A stretch of 64,000 bases of DNA, taken from positions 80,343 through 144,342 of the forward strand of contig CAZFVA010000001.1 in assembly GCA_964522105.1 (NCBI GenBank). The letters run 5' to 3'. Shown here piece by piece: positions 7,973 through 42,553 of this stretch. This stretch comes from an uncultured Anaeromyxobacteraceae bacterium (GTDB taxonomy: Bacteria > Myxococcota_A > UBA9042 > DTJE01). A program made the translations under genes and the position numbers. The notes beneath the pieces were generated by a model, which worked only from the letters and a program-made list of their open reading frames with translations, did no database searches and was not told the origin of the DNA. Numbering within the stretch: the stretch's first letter is position 1; every line of letters starts with the position of its first letter.

Positions 7973-9499
7973 ATGGGATTTGGATTTCCAGGCCTGAAAA
8001 AACTTAAAGATGCTTTCAATAAAGACCCGGGGGTACGTGCGCCAGCATCAGGCCTTGAAGGCCAGACCATTGACGGTCGATTCAAGGTAATCCGCAAAAT
8101 TGGCGTCGGCGGCATGGGTACAGTATATCTGGCGCGTCAGACCTCAATGGACCGGGATGTCGCGATCAAGGTTCTGAACCCTGACAAACTTGATGACGAC
8201 GACGCCAGAAAAAGGTTCAGGATTGAAGCCGCCGCCGTCAGCAAGCTGAAAAGCCCGCACACAATCAGCGTTTATGATTTCGGTGAAGACAATGAAGGGG
8301 AAATGTACCTGGTAATGGAGCTGCTTGAAGGCCGGCCGCTTGCAGACATAATCAAAACCGAAGGTCCACTGGACATCAATAAAGTCCTGAGAATTACCGA
8401 ACAGATACTGGATTCGCTTGGCGAGGCTCACAATGCCGGTATTTTGCACCGCGATATGAAGCCGGACAACGTGTTTGTCATGGAAACGCCGGGGACCGGC
8501 GTGTTCGTGAAAGTGCTGGATTTCGGGATCGCGAAACTTATGGGCGGCCCCGATGCAACCAGAACGTGGCCCGGGCTGGTGATCGGTACACCGGCATACA
8601 TGAGCCCTGAACAGGTAATGGGCAAGCGCCTGGATAACAGATCCGACCTGTACAGCGTCGCTGTCGTCATGTTTGAAATGCTTTCCGGCGGGCTGCCGGT
8701 GACAGGAAAAACACCGATCGAAATCGGCGTAAAGAAAGTTCGCAGCATGCCGTCAAAGCTTGCTTTCGTTAACGGCACAATCGCATATCCCGAAGGTGCA
8801 GATGCGTTTTTTGCCCGGACACTGAACCCGGATCCTGGAAAACGTCCAGCTAATGCAGCCGAGTTCAAGCAACTTATCCAGGATATGTTCGGGATTGATT
8901 TATCAGCAATCAGCGGTTCTGCTAATACCGCGATACAACTGCAACTTCCCAACATTGCGACCGCAGGCGACAGCATCACGACAACGCCGGCGAAAGTTTT
9001 CCTGACAGATTCAAACGCTATTGAAGCGGCCTTTGAGGCCGAAAGAAAGCGAACAGCGAAAAGCTCGGCGGGCGGCCCGCCGGAAGTCGATCGCAGATGG
9101 GCGATTCGCCTGCCCAAACTGTCATCGGTCAAATGCTATTACAACGGTTCCGAGTTTGATGGTACTGCGGGAAACATGAGTTCCTCGGGCGGGTTCATTC
9201 ATTCAACATGGCTGCCGGTCGTCAGTCACAGGGTAACAATTACGTTCACGTGTCCCGGCACAAAAGACTGGAATATTGGAATCCTGGCCGAGGTTGTCAG
9301 AACTTCCCAGGGTTCGGGCAATCCGGGAGACGTGCGCGGTTTTGGAGTTCGCTGGATAAAAATGAGAGCCCGTGGCGGACTGCCTTGCCTGACTAATTTT
9401 TTCACGTCGTCGCTGGGCAAAGACTTGAAGACATCCCTGCCAGAAGATACCAGCGCAAATCAATGGGAATACCTGTTTGCTGAATCCAAATTTGTTTAA
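7973..9499 (+). CDS. Eukaryotic-like Ser/Thr protein kinase fused to C-terminal PilZ (c-di-GMP-binding) domain
   Basis: Kinase subdomains are present: GVGGMGTVYLARQ, AIKVL, HRDMKPDNVFV, DFGIAK and GTPAYMSPEQ. The C-terminal ~110 aa carry the PilZ signatures RRWAIR (RxxxR) and NMSSSGGFIHS (D/N-x-S-x-x-G). Confidence 0.85.
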   Translation: MGFGFPGLKKLKDAFNKDPGVRAPASGLEGQTIDGRFKVIRKIGVGGMGTVYLARQTSMDRDVAIKVLNPDKLDDDDARKRFRIEAAAVSKLKSPHTISVYDFGEDNEGEMYLVMELLEGRPLADIIKTEGPLDINKVLRITEQILDSLGEAHNAGILHRDMKPDNVFVMETPGTGVFVKVLDFGIAKLMGGPDATRTWPGLVIGTPAYMSPEQVMGKRLDNRSDLYSVAVVMFEMLSGGLPVTGKTPIEIGVKKVRSMPSKLAFVNGTIAYPEGADAFFARTLNPDPGKRPANAAEFKQLIQDMFGIDLSAISGSANTAIQLQLPNIATAGDSITTTPAKVFLTDSNAIEAAFEAERKRTAKSSAGGPPEVDRRWAIRLPKLSSVKCYYNGSEFDGTAGNMSSSGGFIHSTWLPVVSHRVTITFTCPGTKDWNIGILAEVVRTSQGSGNPGDVRGFGVRWIKMRARGGLPCLTNFFTSSLGKDLKTSLPEDTSANQWEYLFAESKFV

Positions 9500-22148: not shown

Positions 22149-25100
22149 TTACTGAACGACTTCCAACTGAACGGGGCCAAGCAGGCCGGTGGCAATAATC
22201 GTATCGGCCTTCTTCGAAAACTGCACGGCGGTCGGATCTTTCGCCATGCCAAGCCCGACCAGACGGTTACGAAGTGCAGGAACTACGGTGACTTCAATTG
22301 TATTGGTCCCGGATTCCAGCAGGCCAGTCACGTCCATTTTGAAAGGCTCGGCGATGACTTCGGTCGGATTTGAACCGTTGACCGATACCAGCGCGGCACC
22401 ATGGACGCGGCCAAGGTTCAGCCACATCTTATGCTGCATCGGGGATTCAGCGTCAGGGTCATAAGCCGGGTTCAGAGCATCCATTTCAATTGAAACAACC
22501 GCTGTGTACACGCCCTGCGATGACGAATACTTCAGCGCTTCGACATCGCGCCAGTCAACAAGATTAGCGTTAACGGCTTCGTACGTACCGCCCGAGACAT
22601 CATCGCCTGTGACCTTCAATGTCCACAACGGGATCGACTGGACAGGCGTAACCTGCCCTGCCAGCGGCACCATGCCGCCATAATCTTCGCCTTCAGGCGG
22701 TTCGTTGATGCCGCACGCAATTATCCGCGATCCATAAGCCGGAAATGCGATCGTGACGGTACCCGCATCACCCGAGCGCTCAAACTCAAGCTGCCGGGAA
22801 GCGCCGGTGGCAGGATCAAGCAACAGCGCATGCGTGCAGTCCAATCGCGTCGTAATAGTGACTTCCTGTTCCAAATCGATCGGATTGCGCAGGAACACAA
22901 GATGGCCATTGTCCGAAAGGGCGCGATGAATCATGCGGGTCGAGGAAATCTGATTAAACTGAAAAATCGGCATCAACCCGACATCAACCAGCGCAGGTTG
23001 CAGACCTGCACAGGTGAACAGGAACGGATTACCATTTTCTTGCGTTGACGGGGTCTCGATGATTGGAACCTCCGCGCCCGCAGCAGACGCCGCAATTCCT
23101 TCAAACGCAGCCTTAACCGCCGCATCGCCGTTTTCATAATCATTGAACCCGGGCTGAACGGCAGGGGCATCACCGACAACGACAACCGGCAGACCGGCAT
23201 CGGCCATGGCCTTCAGATTGGCCGCAGCGGCAGGCTGCATCCACGGGGCACGCATCACAACGACGCCACTGTAGGTCGCTCCGGCTATCGACAACTTGCC
23301 GTCCTTGACGACCGCACGCGACAACACATCGTCATTGGTCCATTCCCAGGTGTAGCCCATTATTTCCAGCGAATTCAGCATGGGCCACACGGCCCCAAGC
23401 CACCACGCCGACTGTTCAGGTTTGAACCCGCCGAACAGGCCCTGAACAATCCCGAGCATCTCATCCTGGCCGGCCGCAACTTCGTCGCCAAACGCGCCTT
23501 TGTAGAAGTCTTCATAATGTTCGCGCAGCGCCATGATCGACGCGGGCATCCCGACATACGGATAATAGACCAGCAGATCGGCCTGCGGGGCCCCCTGCCG
23601 CAGCGCATACTGAACCCGCGACACGTACTTGTTGATGGTGTACATGAACTGCCAGAAAGGGTTGGCCTCCGACACGTTTTCGGAATACGTGCCGCCTGAA
23701 AAAGGCGACGAAAACGCATGCCAGTCGGTAATGCCATAAACAGCGTCACCAGTCTTGTACGGGAAACCGTGGTAAGTGACTGAATTCACTCCGGAAGTAA
23801 ACAACTTATCAAGCCACGCCTTCATCTTTGTCGGGGTCGTCATGTAATCGCGACCTGACGAAACAAGCGACTCGGCCGAAATGACATTCTTCCCGTACTG
23901 GTGCCCGCCCGATGTGACGGCCTTGATCGCCAGTTCCGAGCCACCGGCATAAAGCTGTTCAGTTTCCGGTGTATCCGCCGCCCCGGCCGCCTTGATAACA
24001 TCAATCTTCAAGCCGTAAGGCTGGATCCTGAACTTCAAACCATTTTCACCGGCCCATGCTGTACTGGTACCGATGAAACGTTCAATAAACAGATCGGACA
24101 CCGTCTGCTGATAGTCGCGGGCAACACGTTCGTCCATTTCAGAAAACTTGAACGGACATCTGGTGGCGATACCTGCGCCATCAAAGATGTGATTATCCGC
24201 ACCGGGGGAAACGACTGCAGGCAGCAGCGGCCGCACGTCATATCCCCTTAACTCCTTGAACTTATCAAAGAAATCCGCCGTAAAGTGCCGTTCAGTCTTC
24301 AATTCAAAGCTGTCAACAAAGACGCCGCGCACAGCGGTCCCGAACAGGTCAGCCAGACCGTTCTGACTGCCCGAAAGGTAATCAACACTGGTCCTGACAA
24401 GGTCAGCGTCAAAATGGTCAACGGCGAACGCATCCCGGGGTGCAGGCAACGCATTCAGGTTCACATACTCGCCGTCGGGACATGAATAAAAGCCAATTAC
24501 GCGCCAGTCACCGGCAGGTGCCGCCCATTCAAGCTTGCCGTCAGCCGACACCTTGTCTGTCAGCATCACAACCGACGCCGGATCCAATTCAAGCTGATCT
24601 GTCAGGTCATACACGTCGGCCGCATTGCGAACGCCACCGGTCTTTTTCGCGGCCATGACCTCGACGACCTTACATTCATCAGGCAGGTAGCGGGCCATCG
24701 GTTCACCGATACTTTCAGCCAGCACCGCAACTTCATAAAACGGCTCGGGACCCGGTTTTTCGAACTTCAGATTGACCGTTGCGGGGCCGGCAACCGTTTC
24801 TTCAGACCACAGAAGGGTCTGCATCGAATCGCCGACCGCCACATGAGCACCGCCGACAGGCCATCCCGAACCAAGCGTGACGTCCAACTGAATGCCGTTC
24901 TGAACAGCAGAATTGGCCGCCTTCCTGACGTGGGCCCAATATGAATCCGAACCCCACGCCAGTCTGCGCGCCATCTCTTCATCTGATGCGTCGTTGTTCA
25001 GCGCGGCGTTGAAAGACTGAAGCTCGGCGCCGCCAAAGAATGACGACGACAGGATGGCCGTTTCGCGAAGGATTTCTTCGTCTTCAACGTCATCCCCCGG

Positions 25101-25247
25101 CCACCACCACCTGACCCAGGGGCGATATTCGGCGGACGGACTGTCCCACTCGGACCAGTTAACAGAGAGTCGGGACAAGACGGGATCGGCACAGCCGGAA
25201 CCGACTGTCAGCATCGCAACCAGAACAAAAGCCAGCCTGAATTTCAT
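22149..25247 (-). CDS. Large (~1030 aa) secreted lipoprotein, putative glycoside hydrolase-like multi-domain enzyme
   Basis: Signal/lipobox MKFRLAFVLVAMLTVGSGC. The N-terminal PWVRWWWPGDD block and the size resemble large Bacteroidetes-type glycosidases. No catalytic motif was confirmed by eye. Confidence 0.65.
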   Translation of the reverse strand: MKFRLAFVLVAMLTVGSGCADPVLSRLSVNWSEWDSPSAEYRPWVRWWWPGDDVEDEEILRETAILSSSFFGGAELQSFNAALNNDASDEEMARRLAWGSDSYWAHVRKAANSAVQNGIQLDVTLGSGWPVGGAHVAVGDSMQTLLWSEETVAGPATVNLKFEKPGPEPFYEVAVLAESIGEPMARYLPDECKVVEVMAAKKTGGVRNAADVYDLTDQLELDPASVVMLTDKVSADGKLEWAAPAGDWRVIGFYSCPDGEYVNLNALPAPRDAFAVDHFDADLVRTSVDYLSGSQNGLADLFGTAVRGVFVDSFELKTERHFTADFFDKFKELRGYDVRPLLPAVVSPGADNHIFDGAGIATRCPFKFSEMDERVARDYQQTVSDLFIERFIGTSTAWAGENGLKFRIQPYGLKIDVIKAAGAADTPETEQLYAGGSELAIKAVTSGGHQYGKNVISAESLVSSGRDYMTTPTKMKAWLDKLFTSGVNSVTYHGFPYKTGDAVYGITDWHAFSSPFSGGTYSENVSEANPFWQFMYTINKYVSRVQYALRQGAPQADLLVYYPYVGMPASIMALREHYEDFYKGAFGDEVAAGQDEMLGIVQGLFGGFKPEQSAWWLGAVWPMLNSLEIMGYTWEWTNDDVLSRAVVKDGKLSIAGATYSGVVVMRAPWMQPAAAANLKAMADAGLPVVVVGDAPAVQPGFNDYENGDAAVKAAFEGIAASAAGAEVPIIETPSTQENGNPFLFTCAGLQPALVDVGLMPIFQFNQISSTRMIHRALSDNGHLVFLRNPIDLEQEVTITTRLDCTHALLLDPATGASRQLEFERSGDAGTVTIAFPAYGSRIIACGINEPPEGEDYGGMVPLAGQVTPVQSIPLWTLKVTGDDVSGGTYEAVNANLVDWRDVEALKYSSSQGVYTAVVSIEMDALNPAYDPDAESPMQHKMWLNLGRVHGAALVSVNGSNPTEVIAEPFKMDVTGLLESGTNTIEVTVVPALRNRLVGLGMAKDPTAVQFSKKADTIIATGLLGPVQLEVVQ

Positions 25248-25474
25248 ATAATCACCACGGGATTTGATTGAGCGACTCATCAAATGACCTTTTATCAGGG
25301 TGTACCGGGTCGTAACGACGCCCACAGTATAGATGAATCTGACAGGATTTCAGCGCAGGAACTTAGTCCTGAAAAATTTGCTGAACTTGTGCCGCAAACG
25401 TTCAGATTTTGCTAAGCTTCCGGGATTGTAATTCCGACCGGCAAAAGTCGGTTGGTCAGGACTGAAAAAACAGG

Positions 25475-26923
25475 ATGAAAGACATGAAGAACCTGCGATT
25501 TGCGATGTTACCGGCAGTCCTTATGGCCTTAAGTTTCGGCACAGGCTGCAGTTCATCGAATGTACCTGCTGATACGACTGTCCATCAGGATATTGTGGCT
25601 GACACAGGGACAGATACCGTTGCCGATGCGACCGACACAAATGTCCCGGACACAACTGACACAGCTTCGCCGGATGTTGTCACACCTGATGACAGCACCA
25701 TTGCTGATGATACCGAACCGGGCGATACCGCGGTTGACGCTTCCGACACCACGGACACAACACCTGAATTTGTCTGGGCTTCCGGCTGCGAAGGCAGCGG
25801 CACCGGCGCAGCGTGGACAATGATCGAAGACCATACTTTCCTGCGCGGCCCGCTGATTCAGATGTCCGACAGAAACACTGTCACCGTCGTGTGGCGCACC
25901 GCAGTCCGAAGTGACAACGAAGGCTGCGTTGACTACGAAGTCGACAGCGAAACGCTGACGGCATGTGGCATGGCCGACAAAAACGGCCAGTATGAAATCA
26001 CGCTGAATGACCTGCCGGTGGAAACTGAAATCACATACTCGGCGCGGGTTGGCGACGTGAAAACCGGTGATCTGACGTTCAGGACAATGCCGAACACCCC
26101 GAAGCCTATGAAATTTGCTGTATTTGCCGACGCCCACAACAACTTCGAAAACCTGCAGAAGATGACGGCCGTCGCGCTTGCCGAAGGCGTTGACTTCGCG
26201 TTCGGCGTCGGCGATTTCGTTCATCAGGCTGAAACCATTCAATATGACGAGTTATTTCAGGGATTCCAGGATCTTGGAAGCCGCGTAAACATCTGGAGCG
26301 TCATCGGCAATCATGACTCGGGCAGCGAAGAATACTTCGGTTCCTTCGTCGTCCCGGCAGGCAGCCAGGACCCGTATGACATCGAGCACGGATACGCGGA
26401 AGGCTGGTGGGATCGGCGCATCGGAAACGTCTGGCTTGGCGGCGGCTGGGTCCGCGACTTTTACATCTCGGGTCCCGATTCGGACTTCGGCGAAGTCGGC
26501 TGGTTCAGGCAGCAGTTCCAGAAAAACCATTTCAAGACGGCTCAGTGGAAGCTGTTCTTCATCCATGAACCGCCGTACTGCCAGGGCTGGGGCGGATGCA
26601 ATTATGACGGCGAATCGTGCCTGCGCCCGTCGCTGGTTCCGATGGCGGCACAGAACGGCATTCAGGCCACCTTCCACGGTCACATGCACGGTTATGAATA
26701 TGGCGAATCGGAAGGCGTCAAAATATTCATACCGGGCGGTCTGGGCGGCGAACTGGACTACTTCTGCGAAAACAGCACGCCCCCGCAGCCATGGGCATAC
26801 AATTACGTCCATAACTTCGCCATCGTAGAGACGAATTGCGACAAGATGATCGTCCGCTTCATGGGCCTTGACGGTGTTGAACTTGACCGCGTTGAAGTAC
26901 CGTATGTCGCCCCGACCGAATAG
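25475..26923 (+). CDS. Secreted metallophosphoesterase (calcineurin-like) lipoprotein, paralog 1
   Basis: Lipoprotein signal ..LSFGTGC and a D/T-rich tether. The metallophosphoesterase motifs appear in order: FAVFADAHNN (DxH), GVGDFVHQ (GDxx), VIGNHDSG (GNHD/E), FHGHMHGYEYG (GHxH). Confidence 0.8.
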   Translation: MKDMKNLRFAMLPAVLMALSFGTGCSSSNVPADTTVHQDIVADTGTDTVADATDTNVPDTTDTASPDVVTPDDSTIADDTEPGDTAVDASDTTDTTPEFVWASGCEGSGTGAAWTMIEDHTFLRGPLIQMSDRNTVTVVWRTAVRSDNEGCVDYEVDSETLTACGMADKNGQYEITLNDLPVETEITYSARVGDVKTGDLTFRTMPNTPKPMKFAVFADAHNNFENLQKMTAVALAEGVDFAFGVGDFVHQAETIQYDELFQGFQDLGSRVNIWSVIGNHDSGSEEYFGSFVVPAGSQDPYDIEHGYAEGWWDRRIGNVWLGGGWVRDFYISGPDSDFGEVGWFRQQFQKNHFKTAQWKLFFIHEPPYCQGWGGCNYDGESCLRPSLVPMAAQNGIQATFHGHMHGYEYGESEGVKIFIPGGLGGELDYFCENSTPPQPWAYNYVHNFAIVETNCDKMIVRFMGLDGVELDRVEVPYVAPTE

Positions 26924-26942
26924 CCCGCTTAGAGGTAACACA

Positions 26943-28322
26943 ATGAAAGACCTGCTGAATTTGCGACCGGTCGTGTTGATGGTGTTATTGGTATCAGTTT
27001 CCATGGTTTCAGGCTGTGCTTCGTCAGTGACTCCGACAGACACAGGCCGGGATATCATTGCCGACACTGCCGTTGCCGACACTGCCGTTGCAGATACCGC
27101 CGTTGCCGACACTGCCGTTGCAGATACTGCCATTGCCGATACTGCCATTACCGATACAACCCATGAATTTCAATGGGCTTCCGGCTGTGAAGGAACCGGC
27201 ACCGGCGCGACGTGGACATTAATCGAAGACCACACGTTCCTGCGCGGCCCCATGATACAGATGTCTGACTGGAACACGGCTACCATCCTGTGGCGAACCG
27301 CCGTCAAGTCCGACGAAGAAGGCTGCGTGGATTACGAAGTCGGCGCAGAAACCTTTACGAAGTGCGGGACTTCAGACAAACGTGGTCAGTATGAAATAAC
27401 GCTGGATGACCTGCCGGCCGCGACGGAAATCACCTATTCGGCCAGAGTTGGCGACATCAAGACGACCGATCTGACCTTTCGGACAATGCCTGACCGCCCG
27501 GCCCCGATGAAATTCGCTGTGTTTGCGGATGCGCACTGCAACATTGAAAATCTGAAGAAAATGACCGCGGTGGCACTGGCCGAAGGAGTCGATTTTGCGT
27601 TCGGCATTGGCGATTTCATCAATACCCCGGAAGACGTCCAGTTCGACCAGGTGTTTGAAGGACTCCAGGACCTTGGAAGCCGCGTAAATATCTGGGCCGT
27701 GCTTGGTAATCATGACACCGGCGGCATGTATTTCTACAACGCTTTTGCACTGCCGAAGGGCAACACGATCGAACCCGACTACAGCAATGGCTATGGCGAG
27801 GCCTGGTGGGACAAGCGGATCGGCAACGTCTGGCTTGGCGGCGGGTGGGTCATTCCATTCCTTTTCGGGGAGCCTGAAGGGGTTGAAAGCGAACAGAGCT
27901 GGTTCAGGCAACGCTTCCAGGAAGATCACTTCAAAACGGCTCAGTGGAAACTGTTTTTCATACACGAACCGCCTTACTGTCAGGGCTGGGGCGGATGCAA
28001 CTATGACGGCGAAGAGTGCCTGCGCGAATCCCTGATGCCGATGGCAGCCGAAAACGGTATCCAGGCCACCTTCCACGGGCACATGCACGGCATAGAGTAC
28101 GGCGAAACGAACGGCGTCAAGGTGTTCATCCCGGGTGGAGTCGGCGGAGATCTGGACTACTTCTGCGAAAACAGCTCACCACCGCAGCCATGGGCATACA
28201 ACTACGTCCACAACGTCGCAATCGTCGAAACGAACTGCGACAAGATGGTCGTCCGCTTTCTGGGCCTCGATGGCGTTGAACTTGACCGCGTCGAAGTCCC
28301 ATGGGTCGAACCGACGCAATAA
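26943..28322 (+). CDS. Secreted metallophosphoesterase (calcineurin-like) lipoprotein, paralog 2 with tandem-repeat tether
   Basis: It has the same motif set as paralog 1: FAVFADAHCN, GIGDFINT, VLGNHDTG, FHGHMHGIEYG. After the tether the two proteins are largely collinear and appear roughly two-thirds identical by eye. The signal is MKDLLNLRPVVLMVLLVSVSMVSGC. The tether is a perfect (ADTAV)n repeat. The track ORF starts at 26868 and the likelier start is the ATG at 26943. Confidence 0.8.
   Translation: MKDLLNLRPVVLMVLLVSVSMVSGCASSVTPTDTGRDIIADTAVADTAVADTAVADTAVADTAIADTAITDTTHEFQWASGCEGTGTGATWTLIEDHTFLRGPMIQMSDWNTATILWRTAVKSDEEGCVDYEVGAETFTKCGTSDKRGQYEITLDDLPAATEITYSARVGDIKTTDLTFRTMPDRPAPMKFAVFADAHCNIENLKKMTAVALAEGVDFAFGIGDFINTPEDVQFDQVFEGLQDLGSRVNIWAVLGNHDTGGMYFYNAFALPKGNTIEPDYSNGYGEAWWDKRIGNVWLGGGWVIPFLFGEPEGVESEQSWFRQRFQEDHFKTAQWKLFFIHEPPYCQGWGGCNYDGEECLRESLMPMAAENGIQATFHGHMHGIEYGETNGVKVFIPGGVGGDLDYFCENSSPPQPWAYNYVHNVAIVETNCDKMVVRFLGLDGVELDRVEVPWVEPTQ
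27058..27156 (+). repeat. In-frame tandem repeat, 15-bp unit (gccgacactgccgtt and variants), about 6.5 copies, encoding (ADTAV/ADTAI)n
   Basis: Seen directly in the sequence: ccgacactgccgttg x2, cagataccgccgttg, ccgacactgccgttg, cagatactgccattg, ccgatactgccatta. It sits in the lipoprotein tether of paralog 2. The opposite strand yields the artefactual ORF MAVSATAVSAT.... Confidence 0.9.
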
Positions 28323-30196: not shown

Positions 30197-30356
30197 CAAT
30201 ATCAAGGGCACGCCCCGGGGCGCTGGAACAATCACATCGCTTCCCACAAACACAAAACCGCCATAAACACATCTACCCGATACGCAAATGCAGTGTTATC
30301 ATTTCGAAGTTCTTCCGTGTCGCCCCCAGCACCCTGACAGAATCCCGGAGGCTACG

Positions 30357-32705
30357 ATGCGTTCATCATTGCGAACTCTGTCGGTCTGTAAAGTAATTAT
30401 TCTGGCAGTAACTGCCGGTTTCGCCATCGGCGGCTGCAGTAACTGGCAGCAGGCCGAAGATACCGGATTCGACGCTGAAGATTCCGCTGACACAATGAAT
30501 GAACTGGTAATTCCTTCGGATGATGGCCGCGATTCTACCGGCGAAGAAATCGATTCGACTGACCTGTTTGACGACACCATACAATTGGACACCGATGACA
30601 GCGCGGACGCCGACGACGATGTTGAAGCACGCGACACGTTGGACACCACCAGCAATCCTGACATTCCAGATACTTACGACACTGCCGACGTCGATTCCGA
30701 CCACGGTCTTCCTGACTGTCCGGGCGCCCCGGGCTGCGAGTGCACCACCGGGGATGACTGTGAAAATGGCCTGTGCGTGCCGACAAACGACAAATCATTC
30801 TGCGGTCAATTGTGCTGGCTCGATTCAGGGTGTCCCGAGGGCTGGATCTGCGAAGAGATCAACCTCGGCGACAAGACGCTGCGGGCCTGTATCTACAAGT
30901 TCCCGACGCTTTGCCAGCCGTGCCGTGAGGATTCGGAATGCCTGCCGCAATATGGGGCCAGGGACCGCCGTTTTGTCTGCGTCGATACAGGCGCAAACGG
31001 CAAATTCTGCGGGACGGGATGCGCTGCGGAACCGGATTGCCCCGAAGGATACAAGTGCGCGGATGCCCCGACGAACGCCGGCCATTTTCTGCAATGCCAG
31101 CCCGATAACGGCGAATGTGCATGTACTGAAAAATTCATCGAAGGCGGTTACGAAACAGACTGCTTCCGCACAAACGACATCGGGACATGCCCCGGAACCA
31201 GAACGTGCGACATGGAATGCTCGGCAAAATCTGCCGAAGCCGAGATATGCAACCTGCAGGACGACGACTGCGACGGCGCGACCGATGGCGAGAACACTTC
31301 AGATTGCCAGACATTCTTCTATGATTTTGACAACGACGAATACGGAACCGACGACTCGAAGTGCCTGTGCGAAACGACGGGCGAATATCGGGCAACTGTT
31401 GAAGGCGACTGCAATGACAACGACCCGGAAGTGAAGCCGGGAAACTTTGAAATCTGCAACGACGGCAAAGACGACAACTGCGACGGACTGACTGACGTGG
31501 AAAACTCGCAGGAATGTAAGAATTATTTCCTGGACGTTGACGGCGACGGATACGGCCTTTCGGAATACAAGTGCCTTTGCGCTGCATCAGGAAACTACAG
31601 AGCCACCCGCGCTTGTTTCGACAGTGGCTCGTGTGACTGCCTGGATACCGACCTGGAAGTTAACCCCGGACGCATTGAAATCTGTAACAGCGGCAAAGAC
31701 GACAACTGCGATGCTCTGGCAGACGGTGAAAACTCACAAGGTTGCACAAAGTTCTACCGCGACGCAGATAACGACGGATATGGGACCGGCGAGTACAAGT
31801 GTCTGTGCGCGGCAGTCGGCCAGTACAAGATTACGTCTGCCTGCGTCGTTGGCGTCTCGTGCGACTGCAACGACTTCGACCCCGACATGAACCCGGGATT
31901 GCAGGAAGTCTGTGGCAACGGCAAGGACGACAACTGTGACGGGTCCCAGGACACCGAAAACGCGACTTACTGCATCGACTATTTCCTGGATGCTGACGAC
32001 GACGGATTCGGCGTAACAGGAATGAAAAGATGCCTGTGCTACGAGGAAGGATTGTATCGAGTCCTGGGCGGAGGCGACTGCAACGATAACAACGCGGCCA
32101 TGAATCCCAATAACCCTGAAATCTGCAACAATTCTATCGATGACGATTGCGACGGGTATGCCGACAACACGTCGGGACAACCGAACCAGAAGTGCAACGT
32201 GTGCGGCGACGGCCTGATAGACAACGGGGAGGTCTGCGACCACGGAAACTCGAATCCCGGACTGGCGTGCGCTTCTGACTGCAAATCTATCCCGTGCTCC
32301 AACGAAGCTGATGCGTCCATAACTCAGATAAACGGCAGGAACTGCTACTGGCGATCGACGTTGGTCGTGGGGCGATCGGATGCAGCCTCAAGATGCGAAT
32401 CCCGACTTGGATACCTTGTCCGAATGGAAACATCAAACGAGCGGGACTGGGTCTTTGGAAACATGATCTTTCCACCGGGAAGCGGAAGCAAAGTGTGGGT
32501 CGGCGCTCAGAAGTGCGGCGGCAACTGGTGCTGGGATAACGGCCAGATCGTTGGTTCTGAATGGGATTGGAGCCCCGGAGAGCCCAGCGGAAACGGGGAC
32601 TGCGCACAATCATCTGGCAACGGCGCACGCTACGACGACGTCGGCTGCAACAGCGCCAACCGCGACTACGTGTGCGAAAGACCGACCGTCGGAACCTCGC
32701 GCTGA
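30357..32705 (+). CDS. Giant Cys-rich secreted lipoprotein with ~5 MopE-like putative metal-binding repeats and a C-terminal C-type-lectin-like domain
   Basis: Lipoprotein signal MRSSLRTLSVCKVIILAVTAGFAIGGC, then an acidic D/T/S tether. About five ~65-aa repeats follow, of the form C(N/D)D(N/F)DP..PG..E(I/V)CN(D/S)GKDDNCDG..D.EN...C..Y(F/Y).D.D(G/N)DGYG....KCLC. This matches the CNGxDDDCDG 'putative metal-binding motif' abundant in Myxococcota. The C-terminus has ..CYWRSTLVVGRSDAASRCESRLGYLVRMETSNERDWV..W.. ARYDDVGCNSANRDYVCE, the pattern of a C-type lectin fold. Confidence 0.8.
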   Translation: MRSSLRTLSVCKVIILAVTAGFAIGGCSNWQQAEDTGFDAEDSADTMNELVIPSDDGRDSTGEEIDSTDLFDDTIQLDTDDSADADDDVEARDTLDTTSNPDIPDTYDTADVDSDHGLPDCPGAPGCECTTGDDCENGLCVPTNDKSFCGQLCWLDSGCPEGWICEEINLGDKTLRACIYKFPTLCQPCREDSECLPQYGARDRRFVCVDTGANGKFCGTGCAAEPDCPEGYKCADAPTNAGHFLQCQPDNGECACTEKFIEGGYETDCFRTNDIGTCPGTRTCDMECSAKSAEAEICNLQDDDCDGATDGENTSDCQTFFYDFDNDEYGTDDSKCLCETTGEYRATVEGDCNDNDPEVKPGNFEICNDGKDDNCDGLTDVENSQECKNYFLDVDGDGYGLSEYKCLCAASGNYRATRACFDSGSCDCLDTDLEVNPGRIEICNSGKDDNCDALADGENSQGCTKFYRDADNDGYGTGEYKCLCAAVGQYKITSACVVGVSCDCNDFDPDMNPGLQEVCGNGKDDNCDGSQDTENATYCIDYFLDADDDGFGVTGMKRCLCYEEGLYRVLGGGDCNDNNAAMNPNNPEICNNSIDDDCDGYADNTSGQPNQKCNVCGDGLIDNGEVCDHGNSNPGLACASDCKSIPCSNEADASITQINGRNCYWRSTLVVGRSDAASRCESRLGYLVRMETSNERDWVFGNMIFPPGSGSKVWVGAQKCGGNWCWDNGQIVGSEWDWSPGEPSGNGDCAQSSGNGARYDDVGCNSANRDYVCERPTVGTSR

Positions 32706-32769: not shown

Positions 32770-34560
32770 TCAAACAAACCGACGTCTAGTGACCAGAATG
32801 GCGAAAAGAATCGTACAGAGGATGACTTCGGCCACAGGCAGCGAGCGGCCCGTAGAATTCGCCTGACAGCCGCTTGACGACTTGCCGGCACATTCTGCCG
32901 ATGCGGAACATTTGTCGTTCGATGTTTTCGCATTACCGTCATCGCACAATTGACCTTCTTCCAACATGCCATCTTCCGGACATGTCAATCCTGTTCCATT
33001 GCAGTATTCCGGTTTGTCGCATGGAAAAGCAGGCTCCCGGCATACATGGCTGCTGGGAAAAATGTTGTCGTTCGGGCAATTTATCGATGTTCCGGTGCAG
33101 TATTCCGGGGCGTCACACAAATCGGTCGCAGGACGGCACTCAGCGGTTTTTGATCTTATAAGATCGATCGGGCATCCCGTATCTGAGCCTGTACAAAATT
33201 CCGCAACATCACAGACCCCGACGGCGGAACGACATTCAAAGGTGGAACTGCGCACTGCATCTGACGGACATACCGGTGATGAGCCCGAACAATATTCGGC
33301 CTCATCGCAGGCCCCGACAGACTTTCGACATTCATACGAAGTCGCTTGAAACGCGTCGGGCGGACAACTGTCACTTGAGCCTGAGCAGAATTCAACAATG
33401 TCACACTTCCCGCCCGAACCGCGACACGGTTCAACGTCAGTCAGATAATAGTATCCGTCACAACAATCACCAGACACGCAGTCGGCATCAGCCTGAATAG
33501 CCTGCAGCCAGTCATACACATTGCCGGACAATCTGGTTACGCGAGACGCGGGGTAACACCCACCGCCATATCCTGAAACTACACCAACAACGTAGTTCAC
33601 CTTATCCTGATTCACCCAGACACCCGACCCGCTTTGACCGGAACAGACGTCGATCGTGCTGCAGATGAGATTCGCAGTGATACTCGCGGAACTACCCGAA
33701 GTAGTTATCATTTTGTTGGCATCCCAGTCGAATGGATATCCGGCAGTTGTGTGATCGAGCGATGTCAGTTCAGTTGAATCGAGTGCCGAATAACCAACCG
33801 TACCGGTCGTCTTTCCTATCGGTACGGCCAGAGCCAGAAGACCAATGTCATAATCCCAGTTATGGTTGACAGTCCAACCCTCCGGGGAAAAATACCACCT
33901 GGCATAAGTCTCGCCATAAGGCTTCAACATGTAATTTAATCCGGGAGTAACGACGATTAAATCAGGCCAGCGCTCCAAATCGGCGTCGAAAACGCAATGG
34001 CCGGCCGTAAGAACAAGACTTTCTGCAATAAGAATTCCAGTGCAGACATACCAGTCAGAACCGTACCGCATCGAAAGGCTGACAACAGCCGAAAAAGGAA
34101 ACACCTGCGTATCTTTGACCCTGACCCGCTCATCATCACTACCGACTATGTTGCAGGTACCGTCGCTTCTTTTTTGAAGGACCCTGTCAACATTGAGATC
34201 TTCTACGGTCGGCACTGTTGATTGCCGAAGATCAAACTTCTTCGATGCCGGTGCCCACGGATTCCTGGAAAAACCAGGATCATCAGGACGTAAAGCCGGT
34301 TTCCCAGATGGAAACGGCATTGGTTTGATATCCCACGGCGGTTTTTCCATCCAGTCGGGCAATTCATAAACCACGGTCGCCGCTTCGGGATCAGGCAGTT
34401 TTCCTTCAACTAACCTGCGTTCCGTACTTGCTTCCGGCAAAGCGGATGAACCTTGTGACAACACCGAATGCTGCATGGCCATCGAGCCGTCTTCAAAACA
34501 CACAATCATCAGGATGGACGCCGTGACAGTCGCCGCTGTCAGGCGGCAAAGCTTCTTCAT
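32770..34560 (-). CDS. Secreted trypsin-like (S1) serine protease with five tandem ADAM-disintegrin-like Cys-rich repeats and a MYXO-CTERM-like tail
   Basis: Signal MKKLCRLTAATVTASILMIVC. S1 catalytic contexts are LTAGHCV (His), DYDIGLLAL (Asp) and DVCSGQSGSGVWV (Ser). Five 32-aa repeats such as CRPATDLCDAPEYCTGTSINCPNDNIFPSSHV and CREPAFPCDKPEYCNGTGLTCPEDGMLEEGQL follow. They match the ADAM disintegrin C-terminal consensus CRx5CDxPEYC(N/T)GxSxxCPxD. Next is a CDDGN..C Myxo-type Cys repeat. The C-terminus SGCQANSTGRSLPVAEVILCTILFAILVTRRRFV is a Cys motif, then a TM helix, then RRR. Confidence 0.8.
   Translation of the reverse strand: MKKLCRLTAATVTASILMIVCFEDGSMAMQHSVLSQGSSALPEASTERRLVEGKLPDPEAATVVYELPDWMEKPPWDIKPMPFPSGKPALRPDDPGFSRNPWAPASKKFDLRQSTVPTVEDLNVDRVLQKRSDGTCNIVGSDDERVRVKDTQVFPFSAVVSLSMRYGSDWYVCTGILIAESLVLTAGHCVFDADLERWPDLIVVTPGLNYMLKPYGETYARWYFSPEGWTVNHNWDYDIGLLALAVPIGKTTGTVGYSALDSTELTSLDHTTAGYPFDWDANKMITTSGSSASITANLICSTIDVCSGQSGSGVWVNQDKVNYVVGVVSGYGGGCYPASRVTRLSGNVYDWLQAIQADADCVSGDCCDGYYYLTDVEPCRGSGGKCDIVEFCSGSSDSCPPDAFQATSYECRKSVGACDEAEYCSGSSPVCPSDAVRSSTFECRSAVGVCDVAEFCTGSDTGCPIDLIRSKTAECRPATDLCDAPEYCTGTSINCPNDNIFPSSHVCREPAFPCDKPEYCNGTGLTCPEDGMLEEGQLCDDGNAKTSNDKCSASAECAGKSSSGCQANSTGRSLPVAEVILCTILFAILVTRRRFV
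32947..33426 (-). repeat. Five tandem ~96-bp coding repeats (disintegrin-like modules)
   Basis: The protein-level 32-aa periodicity maps to this interval. Repetitive opposite-strand ORFs (..PVQYSG.. patterns at 32966..33349) reflect the nucleotide-level repetition. Confidence 0.7.
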
Positions 34561-34635
34561 GTCAAAATCCTTTTTCAGAGTGCCCTGGCAAAGGACAATC
34601 ATCTGGTAGTGTAAGTGCCGGTAACCTGGCACCAA

Positions 34636-39602: not shown

Positions 39603-40691
39603 TCAGACAGACACGCCGAATTCAGATGACATCAAACGCCTGAAGGCCTCTTTATCAAGAGCTTTTTCAAAGGCGGCTACCGGCTCGACCAGACCTGTCC
39701 TGACAAGGTTCAGAATACATTCGTCCATCCCGATCATACCCTGTGCGCCACCGGTCCTGATCTGGTTATCAATCAAATGAGCCTTGTTTTCCCTGATCAT
39801 GTTCGGCAGGCCCATCGTCCAGAACAGCAGTTCATAAGCCGGAACACGCCCGCCCGTCTTCCTTGGCAGAAGTTGCTGGGCCAGAATGCCGCGCAGCACC
39901 CCGCCGAACATGCTGCGTACTGCGTCCTGTTCATGAACGGGAAACACGTTAATCAGGCGATCCATGGTCCTGGACGCGCTGTTCGTGTGCATCGTTGAAA
40001 GGACCAGAATCCCGGTCTCGGCAGCCTGCAAAGCCATTGAAATGGTTTCAAGATCGCGCATTTCGCCGACCAGAATGATGTCAGGATCTTCACGCACGGC
40101 AACACGAAGCGCGTCGGCAAAAGACACCGCCGAATGACCGATTTCGCGCTGACTGATGCGACACTTTTTGTTTTCATAAACAAATTCGACAGGGTCTTCA
40201 ATCGTCAGGATGTGCAGCCTGCGCGTGTCGTTCAAGTGCTTAATCAGAGCGGCCAGCGTAGTCGACTTGCCGGACCCGGTCGGCCCTGTGACCAGCACAA
40301 GCCCGCTCGGATATTCAACCAGCTTCTTCAGGCGCTCGGGCATGCCGAGATCGGCCAGCGTCACTGTGGCATTCGGAATATGTCGAAAGACCGCAGCCGG
40401 ACCGTTTTCCTGCCTGAAAAGATTGACGCGGAAGCGCCCTACCCCTTCGCACTGGTAAGCCATGTCAAGGTCACCAGTTTCTTCCCAGTGCTTCCACTTC
40501 TCAGTCGGCACTATCGGCTTCATGCCAGCCATGAAGTCATCGGTAGATAAAGGCCTGATCCGAAGGGGCGAAAGGTCGCCTGATATCCTGTAAGTCGGCG
40601 GATTTCCAACAACATAATGCAAGTCGGATGCGCCCATTTCAAGGCCAAGCTCAAGCAGGGACGAAACGTCAGAAAGTACTGGATGAGCCAT
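39603..40691 (-). CDS. pilT: Type IV pilus retraction (twitching motility) ATPase PilT
   Basis: The ORF is near-collinear with canonical PilT: ASDLHYVVGNPPTYRISGD, GVGRFRVNLFRQENGPAAVFRHIP, GLVLVTGPTGSGKSTTLAALI, ILTIEDPVEFVYENKKCRISQREIG, REDPDIILVGEMRDLETISMALQAAETGILVLSTMHT, and the C-terminal AHLIDNQIRTGGAQGM. Confidence 0.9.
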   Translation of the reverse strand: MAHPVLSDVSSLLELGLEMGASDLHYVVGNPPTYRISGDLSPLRIRPLSTDDFMAGMKPIVPTEKWKHWEETGDLDMAYQCEGVGRFRVNLFRQENGPAAVFRHIPNATVTLADLGMPERLKKLVEYPSGLVLVTGPTGSGKSTTLAALIKHLNDTRRLHILTIEDPVEFVYENKKCRISQREIGHSAVSFADALRVAVREDPDIILVGEMRDLETISMALQAAETGILVLSTMHTNSASRTMDRLINVFPVHEQDAVRSMFGGVLRGILAQQLLPRKTGGRVPAYELLFWTMGLPNMIRENKAHLIDNQIRTGGAQGMIGMDECILNLVRTGLVEPVAAFEKALDKEAFRRLMSSEFGVSV

Positions 40692-42553
40692 TACGTCTTC
40701 TCCCTTTCTGTCCATGCGCGGAAGGCGTCCTTGTCGATAGCGCGCGATATTGCATCTTCAACACGGATTTTTCCGGACTCCAGAAGCTTGATAAGGGCAT
40801 TGTCCATCGTCTGCATTCCGTCCACCCGGCCAAGCTGCACAGACGCCTTGATCTGATTGACCTTGTTTTCCCTGATCAATGTTGAAATGGCCGAATTGAC
40901 GACCATCAACTCAACGGCAGCAATGCGGCCCTTGCCGTCGGCCCGTGGAACCAGCGTCTGCGCCAGAATCATGCGCAGCGAATCGGCCATGGAAATGCGA
41001 ATCTGGGGCTGCTCCTGCCCGGGGAATGATTCAATCAGGCGCATGATTGCACCGACGGCGTCAGGCGTGTGCATCGTTGCAATAACGAGATGGCCTGTTT
41101 CCGATGCCTCCAGGACGCGACGCATCGTTTCAGTGTCGCGCATCTCGCCTATTACAATGACATCAGGGTCTTCACGCAGACCGGAACGCAAACCGGCGGC
41201 AAAAGACTGTGTATGTTTACCGACTTCGCGCTGATTGACGATGCCCATCGCGCTTGGAAAGACGTACTCAACCGGGTCTTCAAGCGTCAAAACGTGCCGG
41301 GGAGTGCGCTCGGATATCTCGCGGACAAAAGCGGCCATCGTCGAACTTTTGCCAGATCCGGACCTGCCGGTCACAAGCACCAGGCCCTGCTGCAGGTGGA
41401 TAATGTCTTTGACTCTTCCTGGAAGTCCAAGGGAATCAAGACGGGGGCTTTTAGAAGCAATCAACCGGATGACCGACGCCATTCCGCGCCTTTCGCAGAA
41501 CACATTCACACGGTGCCGACCAACGCCTTCAACCACGTGCGAGAAGTCAGCATCCTGCATATGTTCGTAGCGGCTGGCCAGGTGCAGCGGCATTATTTCG
41601 CGAATCGCTGCTTCAGCCGCTTCCGGCGACAGTGGCAACCCGACATCGACCAGAGCCCCGTGAATCCTGAATGCAACTGGAAGACCCGGAATAATATGTA
41701 CGTCCGAGGCACCTTCAAGTCTGGCCCGGGTCAAAAGTTCATCAAGAAAGCCACGGGTCTTTACCGCACCTGCTGCCTGCGCGTTCAGTGCCGTTTCATC
41801 GACAGGTTTACCAATAAGCTGCCCGACGCTGACCATCGACGCGACAGCCGCATTTCTGACGTCGGCATCCGGGTCAGAACCAGCAATCCGCTCAAGATAC
41901 GGCATGACCTTCTGATTTTTCATCAGGCCAAGGGCCGCGACAGCCTCTTTTCTGATGACTGAATCACTGTCCTGAATAAACCGCCCGGTTGCGCCGATGG
42001 CGGCCTGGTCCCCGGACTGTCTGATAAGTGAAATGGCATCCCATCGTAAATCTTCCAGGGCCAGAGCTTCGACCAGAATCTCAATCGCTTTCGGGCCGCC
42101 GGTCATGAAAGCAGCATCAAGGGCCAGGACCGCAAGAAGGCGGTCTTTTGAATTCAAGCAGAACCTCAAAGCCGGAAGAACATCCTTGTGAAGGATAGTC
42201 CTGGCACAGCTCATCAACAGCCGCCCATCTACACCTTCAGCTTTTGCAAGTTCAATAATGACTACCGGAGCCAGATCGTTCGCCAGTCGGCGAAGCATCC
42301 TGTCCAGCCTTTCGCGTGAAGAAACGAGCAGGTTACGGCGAATCCGCAGCGCAGCCAGCAGGGGCGATTCCCCGGGCAACGCCGGGGATTGAATCAGGAC
42401 CTTGGCGGCCTTGTTACGCTCACGATCGTCAGGACTGAACAGTGCCCGTACAAGGTCTTCTGCATCTTTGAAGCCGCCAATGCCAGCAGCAGATTTGCCG
42501 TCACCCGGTCCGTCAGCTTTGCCAGGCATAATCCCCCTTTCAGACCTGAACAC
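40691..42553 (-). CDS. PilT-family ATPase paralog with ~270-aa N-terminal HEAT/ARM-like repeat extension
   Basis: The C-terminal 350 aa form a PilT core: GVGRHRVNVF, GLVLVTGRSGSGKSSTMAAFV, LTLEDPVEYVF, REDPDVIVIGEMRDTETMRRVLEASETGHLVIATMHT. The N-terminal half shows repeated helical-pair units (..DSDSVIRKEAVAALGLM.., ..DPDADVRNAAVASMVS..), typical of HEAT repeats. Its stop overlaps the pilT start (TAATG). Confidence 0.8.
   Translation of the reverse strand: MFRSERGIMPGKADGPGDGKSAAGIGGFKDAEDLVRALFSPDDRERNKAAKVLIQSPALPGESPLLAALRIRRNLLVSSRERLDRMLRRLANDLAPVVIIELAKAEGVDGRLLMSCARTILHKDVLPALRFCLNSKDRLLAVLALDAAFMTGGPKAIEILVEALALEDLRWDAISLIRQSGDQAAIGATGRFIQDSDSVIRKEAVAALGLMKNQKVMPYLERIAGSDPDADVRNAAVASMVSVGQLIGKPVDETALNAQAAGAVKTRGFLDELLTRARLEGASDVHIIPGLPVAFRIHGALVDVGLPLSPEAAEAAIREIMPLHLASRYEHMQDADFSHVVEGVGRHRVNVFCERRGMASVIRLIASKSPRLDSLGLPGRVKDIIHLQQGLVLVTGRSGSGKSSTMAAFVREISERTPRHVLTLEDPVEYVFPSAMGIVNQREVGKHTQSFAAGLRSGLREDPDVIVIGEMRDTETMRRVLEASETGHLVIATMHTPDAVGAIMRLIESFPGQEQPQIRISMADSLRMILAQTLVPRADGKGRIAAVELMVVNSAISTLIRENKVNQIKASVQLGRVDGMQTMDNALIKLLESGKIRVEDAISRAIDKDAFRAWTEREKT

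Follow-up and report, generated by a model that had tools for sequence, protein, structure and literature searches.

A probable lipid-anchored lectin of an uncultured Anaeromyxobacteraceae bacterium: a C-type lectin domain on a cysteine-rich MopE-repeat scaffold

Is the C-terminal end of a long, cysteine-rich bacterial lipoprotein a true C-type lectin-like domain (CTLD), and if so, what kind of protein carries it and for what use? The question is raised by a gene at positions 30357–32705 (+) of a 64,000-nucleotide stretch of DNA, referred to here as the window, which comes from an uncultured Anaeromyxobacteraceae bacterium (assembly GCA_964522105.1, contig CAZFVA010000001.1, positions 80,343 to 144,342). 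The initial annotation, made from the sequence alone, described the product as a Cys-rich lipoprotein of 782 amino acids (aa) that joins about five MopE-type repeats to a CTLD, and read it as a metal- and glycan-binding surface adhesin, possibly used in prey recognition. The gene itself is secure: the open reading frame (ORF) that encloses it in the ORF listing spans 30288–32705, a GGAGG sequence suited to be the ribosome-binding site (RBS) sits 7 nt before the ATG at 30357, and gene callers returned the same 782-aa product (P0001) in three independent assemblies, namely one JGI and two Logan metagenome contigs.

The C-terminal lectin domain

The CTLD occupies residues 647–777 (32295..32687, +), and the sequence strings from which it had been proposed are all present. 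With the full-length protein as query, Lectin_C (PF00059) was not listed at E≤1 by the Pfam scan, nor by the NCBIfam scan, and for the identical database entry, P0001, the precomputed Pfam annotation likewise names PF11617 alone. When the last 141 aa were scanned alone, PF00059 matched at 43.6 bits (gathering cutoff 22.6, E 5.4e-11) over profile positions 7–107 of 107, and we infer that the full-length miss is due to the composition and bias filters of HMMER in a Cys/Asp-rich protein. On the full-length scan alone the refuting outcome named in the initial annotation, a missing Lectin_C hit, would have applied; the match of the isolated C-terminus sets it aside. As Lectin_C surfaced only when the C-terminus was scanned on its own, CTLDs in Cys/Asp-rich repeat proteins are probably under-annotated.

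Comparison with solved structures points the same way. A phmmer search of the PDB sequences returned 43 CTLD chains, headed by TC14 (1byf, 3.5e-7) and followed by codakine, DC-SIGNR/L-SIGN, E-selectin, langerin and DCIR, and a profile built from 18 bacterial relatives matched 195 PDB CTLD chains at E<1e-4. AlphaFold2, run on a 32-sequence family alignment in place of a 4-sequence alignment that had given an unusable model (pLDDT 40.5), predicted a CTLD fold with a pLDDT of 87.1 and a pTM of 0.83, for which the top Foldseek matches were the animal CTLDs of CD23, langerin, codakine and DC-SIGNR (E ~1e-9, target TM 0.75–0.83).

The cysteines follow the pattern expected of the fold. In the HMMER alignments C680, C749, C764 and C773 fall on C1–C4 of DC-SIGNR, codakine and TC14, giving the predicted pairs 680/773 and 749/764, and C663 falls on C0'. 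The core CTLD cysteines, C663 and C647 included, are invariant in the bacterial family, and C647 likely pairs with C663, which would make the domain one of the long form. A further pair, C720/C725, recurs in three close homologs; in P0028, an ortholog with the same domain, both residues are missing together, the behaviour expected of a disulfide. The WIGL motif of strand β2 reads VWVGA (residues 713–717) in the window protein, VWIGL being the family consensus. DCIR/CLEC4A, DC-SIGNR, langerin, CD23 and codakine have the same CTLD fold with a long loop region, and Cys1–4, the long-form pair and WIGL align between them and the window protein. The domain is thereby established, as far as sequence and predicted fold can do so, as a genuine, canonical long-form CTLD. 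A few residues past the last Cys, almost all members of the Cys-repeat and CTLD family described below also share a conserved C-terminal tail, ER-P-x-x-G-[TRIV]-x-R (window 32688–32702, +), which may belong to the fold or serve as a signal for sorting or processing.

Within the domain, conservation and alignment with TC14 and DC-SIGNR mark a putative principal Ca2+/sugar site, E742-P743-S744 ... Y759-D760-D761 (32580..32639, +). The first tripeptide occupies the position of EPN/QPD and the second that of WND, and together they align with EPS...LDD of TC14 and with EPN...WND of DC-SIGNR. The EPS and YDD residues are invariant in four close homologs, and EPSG(D/N)G ... (N/D)D is near-invariant across a wider bacterial family whose members are otherwise 35–45% identical. 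TC14 has EPS and binds galactose (PMC8235521), and DCIR, in which the same tripeptide occurs, chelates Ca2+ through E195 and S197 of EPS, E201, and N218/D219 of WND (bioRxiv 10.1101/2024.05.20.594848). On these alignments a Ca2+/sugar site in the bacterial domain is plausible, whereas specificity of the Gal type versus the Man type is not readable from the EPS motif. TC14, the galactose-binding C-type lectin of Polyandrocarpa misakiensis (1byf/1tlg), is both the best sequence match of the domain and a carrier of the same EPS...xDD; it is, however, a soluble single-domain animal lectin without the lipid anchor, stalk or Cys repeat of the window protein, and the animal receptors named above differ from the latter in membrane topology and in their oligomerisation domains.

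Predicted anchor, linker and cysteine-rich stalk

At its other end the protein begins with MRSSLRTLSVCKVIILAVTAGFAIGG-C27, in which a motif script and inspection recognise a basic n-region, a hydrophobic h-region and the lipobox A-I-G-G-C; this type-II signal peptide is encoded at 30357..30437 (+), with the same start in the three assemblies. The segment was judged by the PROSITE PS51257 lipoprotein rule, a lipobox [LVI..][ASTG..][GAS]-C within the first ~35 residues. A lipoprotein (signal peptidase II) signal is thus present, lipidation itself being predicted, and relatives likewise start with lipobox-type signals. The whole product contains 70 Cys, and 156 Asp and Glu versus 52 Lys and Arg. 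The signal is followed by an acidic low-complexity linker (residues 28–119; 30438..30713, +), in which a composition script counted 32 Asp/Glu, 2 Lys/Arg and 0 Cys. It is presumed to be a flexible tether, and similar D/E/T-rich linkers are seen in P0028 and in small members of the Cys-repeat and CTLD family.

Residues 120–297 (30714..31247, +) form an N-terminal Cys-rich domain with 26 Cys, which is conserved in paralogs and for which neither sequence nor profile found a match in Pfam, NCBIfam or the PDB. In a 19-sequence paralog alignment all 26 Cys are invariant, within a total of 29 invariant columns. The domain, of ~180 aa, resembles two tandem half-domains, with the pattern C-x-C...DC...G-x-C...FCG-x-x-C...CP-x-G[WY]-x-C.

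The MopE-motif array that follows (residues 298–607; 31248..32177, +) is matched by PF11617 (Cu-binding_MopE) in five stretches, at 111.3 bits for the 782-aa protein against a Pfam cutoff of 27, and at 115.6 bits for the array alone. The initial annotation had counted about five repeats of ~65 aa, each pairing the putative metal-binding motif with a DxDxDGYG loop. There are indeed five cores, which begin at residues 298, 367, 443, 519 and 590, but only four DxDxD[GE][YF]G loops (at residues 323, 393, 469 and 545); the complete units, each a C-x-x-x-D-D-[DN]-C-D-[GA] motif with its loop, therefore number four and measure 69, 76, 76 and 71 aa, and the fifth core is bare. At the DNA level the repeat appears at an offset of 228 bp with ~68–70% identity and is old; TRF reported nothing.

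The single PDB sequence match of the array is to residues 15–44 of MopE* (2vov; E 0.003), the form of Methylococcus capsulatus MopE in the PDB, the match being the 30-residue PF11617 motif DC-N-D-x-x-P-x-x-x-P-G-x-x-E-x-x-x-G-x-D-x-N-C-D-G. In the crystal of MopE* the first 46 residues are invisible, the high-affinity Cu(I) site is built from two His and a kynurenine in another part of the protein, and Ca2+ does no more than stabilise it against proteolysis (PMC3423442). The shared motif thus lies in a disordered N-terminal segment of a protein whose fold and Cu(I) site are unrelated to the window protein, and the PDB sequence search found no solved structure with an ordered copy of it. Because the sole solved relative of the segment is invisible and its Cu(I) site lies elsewhere, ‘metal-binding’ is for PF11617 a database name, not a finding, and metal binding by the repeats, as first proposed, is unsupported. 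The resemblance to thrombospondin type-3 repeats that had also been noted is limited to the DxDxDG loop, as TSP_3 (PF02412) gave no match on the whole protein at E≤1, nor on the array or a two-unit fragment at E≤10. That loop is a generic Ca2+-binding pattern, and for this reason it is reasonable to suppose that the Asp-rich loops of the MopE units probably bind Ca2+ as a structural ion of the stalk.

Between the array and the CTLD lies a single myxo-type cysteine-rich acidic repeat (CNVCGDGLIDNGEVCDHGN...DC...C; residues 608–647; 32178..32297, +). In the window protein it scores just below the cutoff of TIGR02232 (myxo_disulf_rpt; 20.2 bits versus 20.8) and further below that of PF13948 (DUF4215; 17.8 versus 27). 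The aligned repeat in the relatives P0131 and P0127 scores 41–42 bits, above threshold, which makes homology of the segment to the myxo-type repeat very likely, and the Cys columns of the repeat are conserved in the family alignment. The core of the initial annotation, a lipoprotein that joins MopE repeats to a true CTLD, is correct.

A small lectin family and an expanded scaffold

Considering where such a combination comes from, the two ends of the protein lead to different sets of relatives. A word-indexed search with the whole protein returned 1991 proteins, nearly all of them MopE-repeat proteins from metagenome-assembled genomes (MAGs) of Myxococcota or ‘Deltaproteobacteria’, among which only P0028 also has PF00059; this protein, of 660 aa and 60% identical over the aligned part, has three MopE cores versus the five of the window protein. 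The same kind of search with the CTLD alone gave 2 proteins only, and an exhaustive HMMER search was used instead, which gave 686 representative clusters at E<1e-3, of which 58 had E<1e-10; many of the clusters are multi-CTLD proteins of eukaryotic look.

A bacterial module stands out among these matches. In 16 of the top 150 a single Cys repeat (CGDG-x-I-D...E-x-CDDGN...GDGC-x-x-DC...C) runs straight into a CTLD that ends ...RD(F/Y)VCER-x-x-x-G-x-x-R, and a profile search raised the number of clusters with the Cys repeat and EPS-type CTLD to ~40, mostly from Myxococcota/Polyangia. Most are proteins of 210–300 aa made of a lipoprotein-type signal peptide, a linker, the repeat and the CTLD. JGI names them ‘cysteine-rich repeat protein’ and NCBI has one as ‘lectin-like protein [Polyangia bacterium]’, while the 90%-identity cluster of P0028 holds two NCBI nr entries named ‘C-type lectin domain-containing protein [Myxococcota bacterium]’ (HNU68889.1, HOC99657.1); the lectin names of these NCBI entries mean that the module is already recognised by annotation pipelines. 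The Myxococcota/Polyangia lectin-like proteins (HEY0713218.1, HNU68889.1, HOC99657.1) share with the window protein the module itself, EPSG(D/N)G...(N/D)D...RD(F/Y)VCER, the G-x-x-R tail and the lipoprotein-type signal. They are mostly small, however, and the module sits on an N-domain and multi-unit MopE scaffold only in the window protein and the P0028 cluster. A literature search found no paper on this family of Cys-repeat and CTLD lipoproteins. The earlier statement that such domains are rare in bacteria accordingly stands in a relative sense only, given ~40 clusters in this group of bacteria, some of them named as lectins by NCBI.

The scaffold is far more widespread than this head. In a scan of one genome per GTDB species no copy of the gene was found, and 76 loci held relatives at ≤49% identity, in MAGs labelled Myxococcales, Myxococcota, Anaeromyxobacteraceae or Deltaproteobacteria; many of these MAGs are, by their isolate names, from lakes and groundwater, and several hold at least 4 paralogs. 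Taking the 76 genome loci with the three contigs that bear the gene itself, the 26-Cys N-domain is encoded at 71 of the 79, and the CTLD module is absent from all 76 genome loci. Among the 120 nearest homologs, 110 continue for at least 120 residues past the last MopE core, and these tails form 11 similarity clusters. The dominant type (87 proteins) is without a Pfam name; the others include DUF5648, a PQQ-type propeller, an RCC1 propeller with Dictyostelium-type Cys repeats, DUF3604/PHP and a weak Reelin-subrepeat-like domain, and the CTLD cluster is made up of the window protein and P0028, two proteins in all.

These comparisons show that the N-domain and the MopE array constitute a conserved, expanded lipoprotein scaffold, in which the stalk varies in length and the C-terminal head is exchangeable. 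The CTLD head of the window protein is taken from the small Myxococcota lectin-lipoprotein family, and its fusion to the scaffold, though rare, is ordinary domain shuffling within a highly modular family, an uncommon combination of domains and no new kind of protein. The uncharacterised scaffold, with its 26-Cys N-domain and MopE units and its many paralogs per freshwater Myxococcota genome, is arguably more interesting than the CTLD. Two close CTLD relatives, P0121 and P0122, have DPDDDNDGDPD-x-TDC upstream of their last MopE core, a TSP3-like Asp-rich run and not a DxDxDGYG unit, which suggests a different type of stalk fused to the same head; both are metagenome fragments that end at a contig edge.

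A probable tethered lectin and its alternatives

What, then, might the protein do? The explanation that we favour, with confidence a little better than even, is that it is an extracytoplasmic, lipid-anchored lectin of ‘stalk-and-head’ design, serving as a tethered, Ca2+-dependent glycan-binding receptor. After export by the Sec route Cys27 would be lipidated and so hold the protein on a membrane, which is most likely the outer one. The 92-residue acidic linker, the N-domain with its presumptive 13 disulfides, and four and a quarter MopE units would together form a rigid, protease-resistant stalk, stabilised by disulfides and Ca2+, that holds the CTLD away from the membrane. The head at the distal end, recognised by sequence, profile and predicted fold, would consist of the one myxo-type Cys repeat and the long-form CTLD, which would most likely bind sugar through a Ca2+ ion coordinating two vicinal hydroxyls, in a site like that of TC14 and partly that of DCIR. 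On this account it would belong to a repertoire of tethered binders for environmental, prey or self polysaccharides, and its target could be a prey envelope, the producer's own matrix polysaccharide, or algal or detrital glycans.

Several points weigh against this explanation. The site departs from the full five-ligand arrangement of the animal receptors (E, N/S, E, N, D) in that YDD stands in place of WND, and in that Gly747 takes the place of the third canonical Ca2+ ligand, a Glu that precedes Cys2 by two residues (E193 of MBP-A, E201 of DCIR); TC14 also has no Glu before Cys2 in the same alignment, and the flanking N746 or D748 could act as a substitute ligand. The geometry of the disulfides and of the site was read from alignments and not from model coordinates. 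Ca2+ binding by the MopE units is a prediction, and the family as a whole is known from sequence and predicted structure alone. The membrane side on which the protein stands and its exposure at the surface are not determinable from its sequence, and its neighbouring genes, which are not conserved, indicate no functional linkage and give no clue to function. Prey recognition and surface exposure, as put forward in the initial annotation, are speculation; neither a conserved neighbourhood nor other evidence bears on the target.

The closest functional analogies come from two other bacteria, neither of them claimed as homologous. The chimeric MAT fibre protein Bd2740 of the predator Bdellovibrio bacteriovorus likewise comes from a family of long modular proteins in which the N-terminal part is conserved and the binding tips at the C-terminus can be exchanged, one of these tips having a CTL fold (PMC10769870). 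Its stalk is, however, a trimeric β-helix with no detected homology to the MopE array, its Ca motif is lost and it trimerises via helix B. TraA of Myxococcus xanthus shares the design of a recognition head, a stalk of cysteine-rich repeats and a lipid anchor (PMC13184517); the likeness is one of design. TraA has a C-terminal MYXO-CTERM anchor and an N-terminal variable domain, binds homotypically and needs TraB.

Among the alternatives, one keeps the head and changes its ligand. The CTLD might bind something other than carbohydrate, such as a protein, a lipid, or mineral or ice, as in natural killer (NK) receptors, snaclecs, Bd2740 and Mtd, with EPS and YDD being structural or vestigial. We regard this as unlikely, as the near-invariance of EPS and (N/D)D within so diverged a family points to selection on the site, and the top match by sequence, a galactose lectin that depends on Ca2+, carries the same EPS...xDD. 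Slightly less probable is a role in self-recognition, cohesion or the matrix, in which the protein would be a receptor for the cell's own exopolysaccharide or O-antigen, or for a like molecule on kin, in the manner of TraA, and not a prey sensor. TraA does join a variable recognition domain, cysteine-rich repeats and a lipid sorting tag (PMC13184517), and the scaffold family is expanded, with variable heads, in social and predatory Myxococcota, but no TraB-like or other conserved partner gene occurs at the compared loci, the anchor is at the opposite end from that of TraA and the fold of the head differs. This proposal concerns the target and not the mechanism, and is compatible with a tethered Ca2+-dependent lectin.

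The remaining alternatives find much less room. That the protein acquires or sequesters copper or another metal in the way of MopE, with the CTLD as an accessory, could draw on its five matches to Cu-binding_MopE and its very high content of Asp, Glu and Cys, and is very improbable nonetheless: the similarity to MopE covers 30 residues only (MopE* 15–44), part of what is unseen in the crystal, with the Cu(I) site in a non-homologous body (PMC3423442), the sequence has no evident motifs rich in His or Met, and the number and spacing of the Cys do not vary, which is what disulfides would lead one to expect. A copper function like that of MopE was rejected for lack of support, the similarity being confined to the disordered segment. 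Least credible of all are the proposals that a diversity-generating retroelement (DGR) has the CTLD as its variable protein, or that the gene is contamination from a eukaryote or was transferred very recently. C-type lectin (CLec) folds are the usual targets of DGRs, PMC10769870 mentions Mtd, and the CTLD looks ‘animal-like’. Against a DGR, there is no paralog of the gene in the 64-kb window and no template repeat of the CTLD-coding DNA, since a blastn search of 32178–32705 against the window gave only chance matches of ≤24 nt, and the DGR reading was rejected on this result; no reverse transcriptase was seen among the 19 window ORFs scanned with Pfam, out of 65 large ORFs, a sample that does not exclude one in the window. 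Against contamination or a recent transfer, the identical gene lies among bacterial genes on three independent assemblies, has an RBS and a lipobox, and matches its surroundings in composition (GC content 0.561 versus 0.549 for the window, and GC content at third codon positions, GC3, close to that of neighbouring genes), and diverged bacterial relatives exist.

Should the CTLD bind sugar via Ca2+, it would be a bacterial case of the canonical metazoan mechanism of carbohydrate recognition, in contrast to intimin, Mtd and Bd2740, whose CLec folds are Ca-free. A broader proposal, which we put forward as doubtful, is that Myxococcota possess a native, anciently diversified family of animal-type CTLDs that keep the EPS Ca2+ site and are used as interchangeable heads on a massively expanded scaffold, amounting to a germline-encoded pattern-recognition repertoire for prey, kin or environmental glycans. 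If true, bacteria would have a counterpart to the C-type lectin receptors of metazoans, with a bearing on the evolutionary origin of the metazoan CTLD. Experiment would be worthwhile on the scaffold and on the retention of a TC14-like Ca2+ site by a bacterial CTLD, and the ligands of the heads would inform on surface sensing by predatory or social Myxococcota.

The genes around the lectin gene complete the description of the locus. Upstream lie an ABC-2 permease and its ATPase, and convergent with the lectin gene on its downstream side is 32770–34635 (-), which encodes a membrane-anchored, trypsin-like protease of 621 aa; its trypsin domain scores 57 bits and its hydrophobic anchor is C-terminal. 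This product also contains five significant Disintegrin repeats (PF00200, 103 bits versus a cutoff of 35.1), a second ‘metazoan-type’ extracellular domain beside the CTLD gene. Both the ABC genes and the trypsin-disintegrin gene recur on the three contigs with the identical gene and are absent from the P0028 locus and from all the genome loci compared; a conserved neighbourhood was rejected on their absence at the P0028 locus. Promoter and terminator scans gave nothing above shuffled expectation.

Further upstream, before the ABC-2 pair, two tandem paralogous genes for calcineurin-like phosphoesterases (Metallophos, ~482–484 aa) lie at 25475–26923 (+) and 26868–28322 (+), their ORFs overlapping as listed. 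The sole carbohydrate-active enzyme seen nearby, a 1058-aa protein with a GH106 α-L-rhamnosidase domain (196 bits), is encoded ~5 kb upstream at 22149–25325 (-), with no link to the lectin gene established. The rest of the window has the look of an ordinary chromosome, with Mur ligases and a P-type ATPase, a Ser/Thr protein kinase fused to a PilZ domain at 7973–9499 (+), and two adjacent T2SSE/PilT-like ATPases, one with N-terminal HEAT repeats, at 39603–42553 (-); features of this kind are typical of Myxococcota-like genomes.

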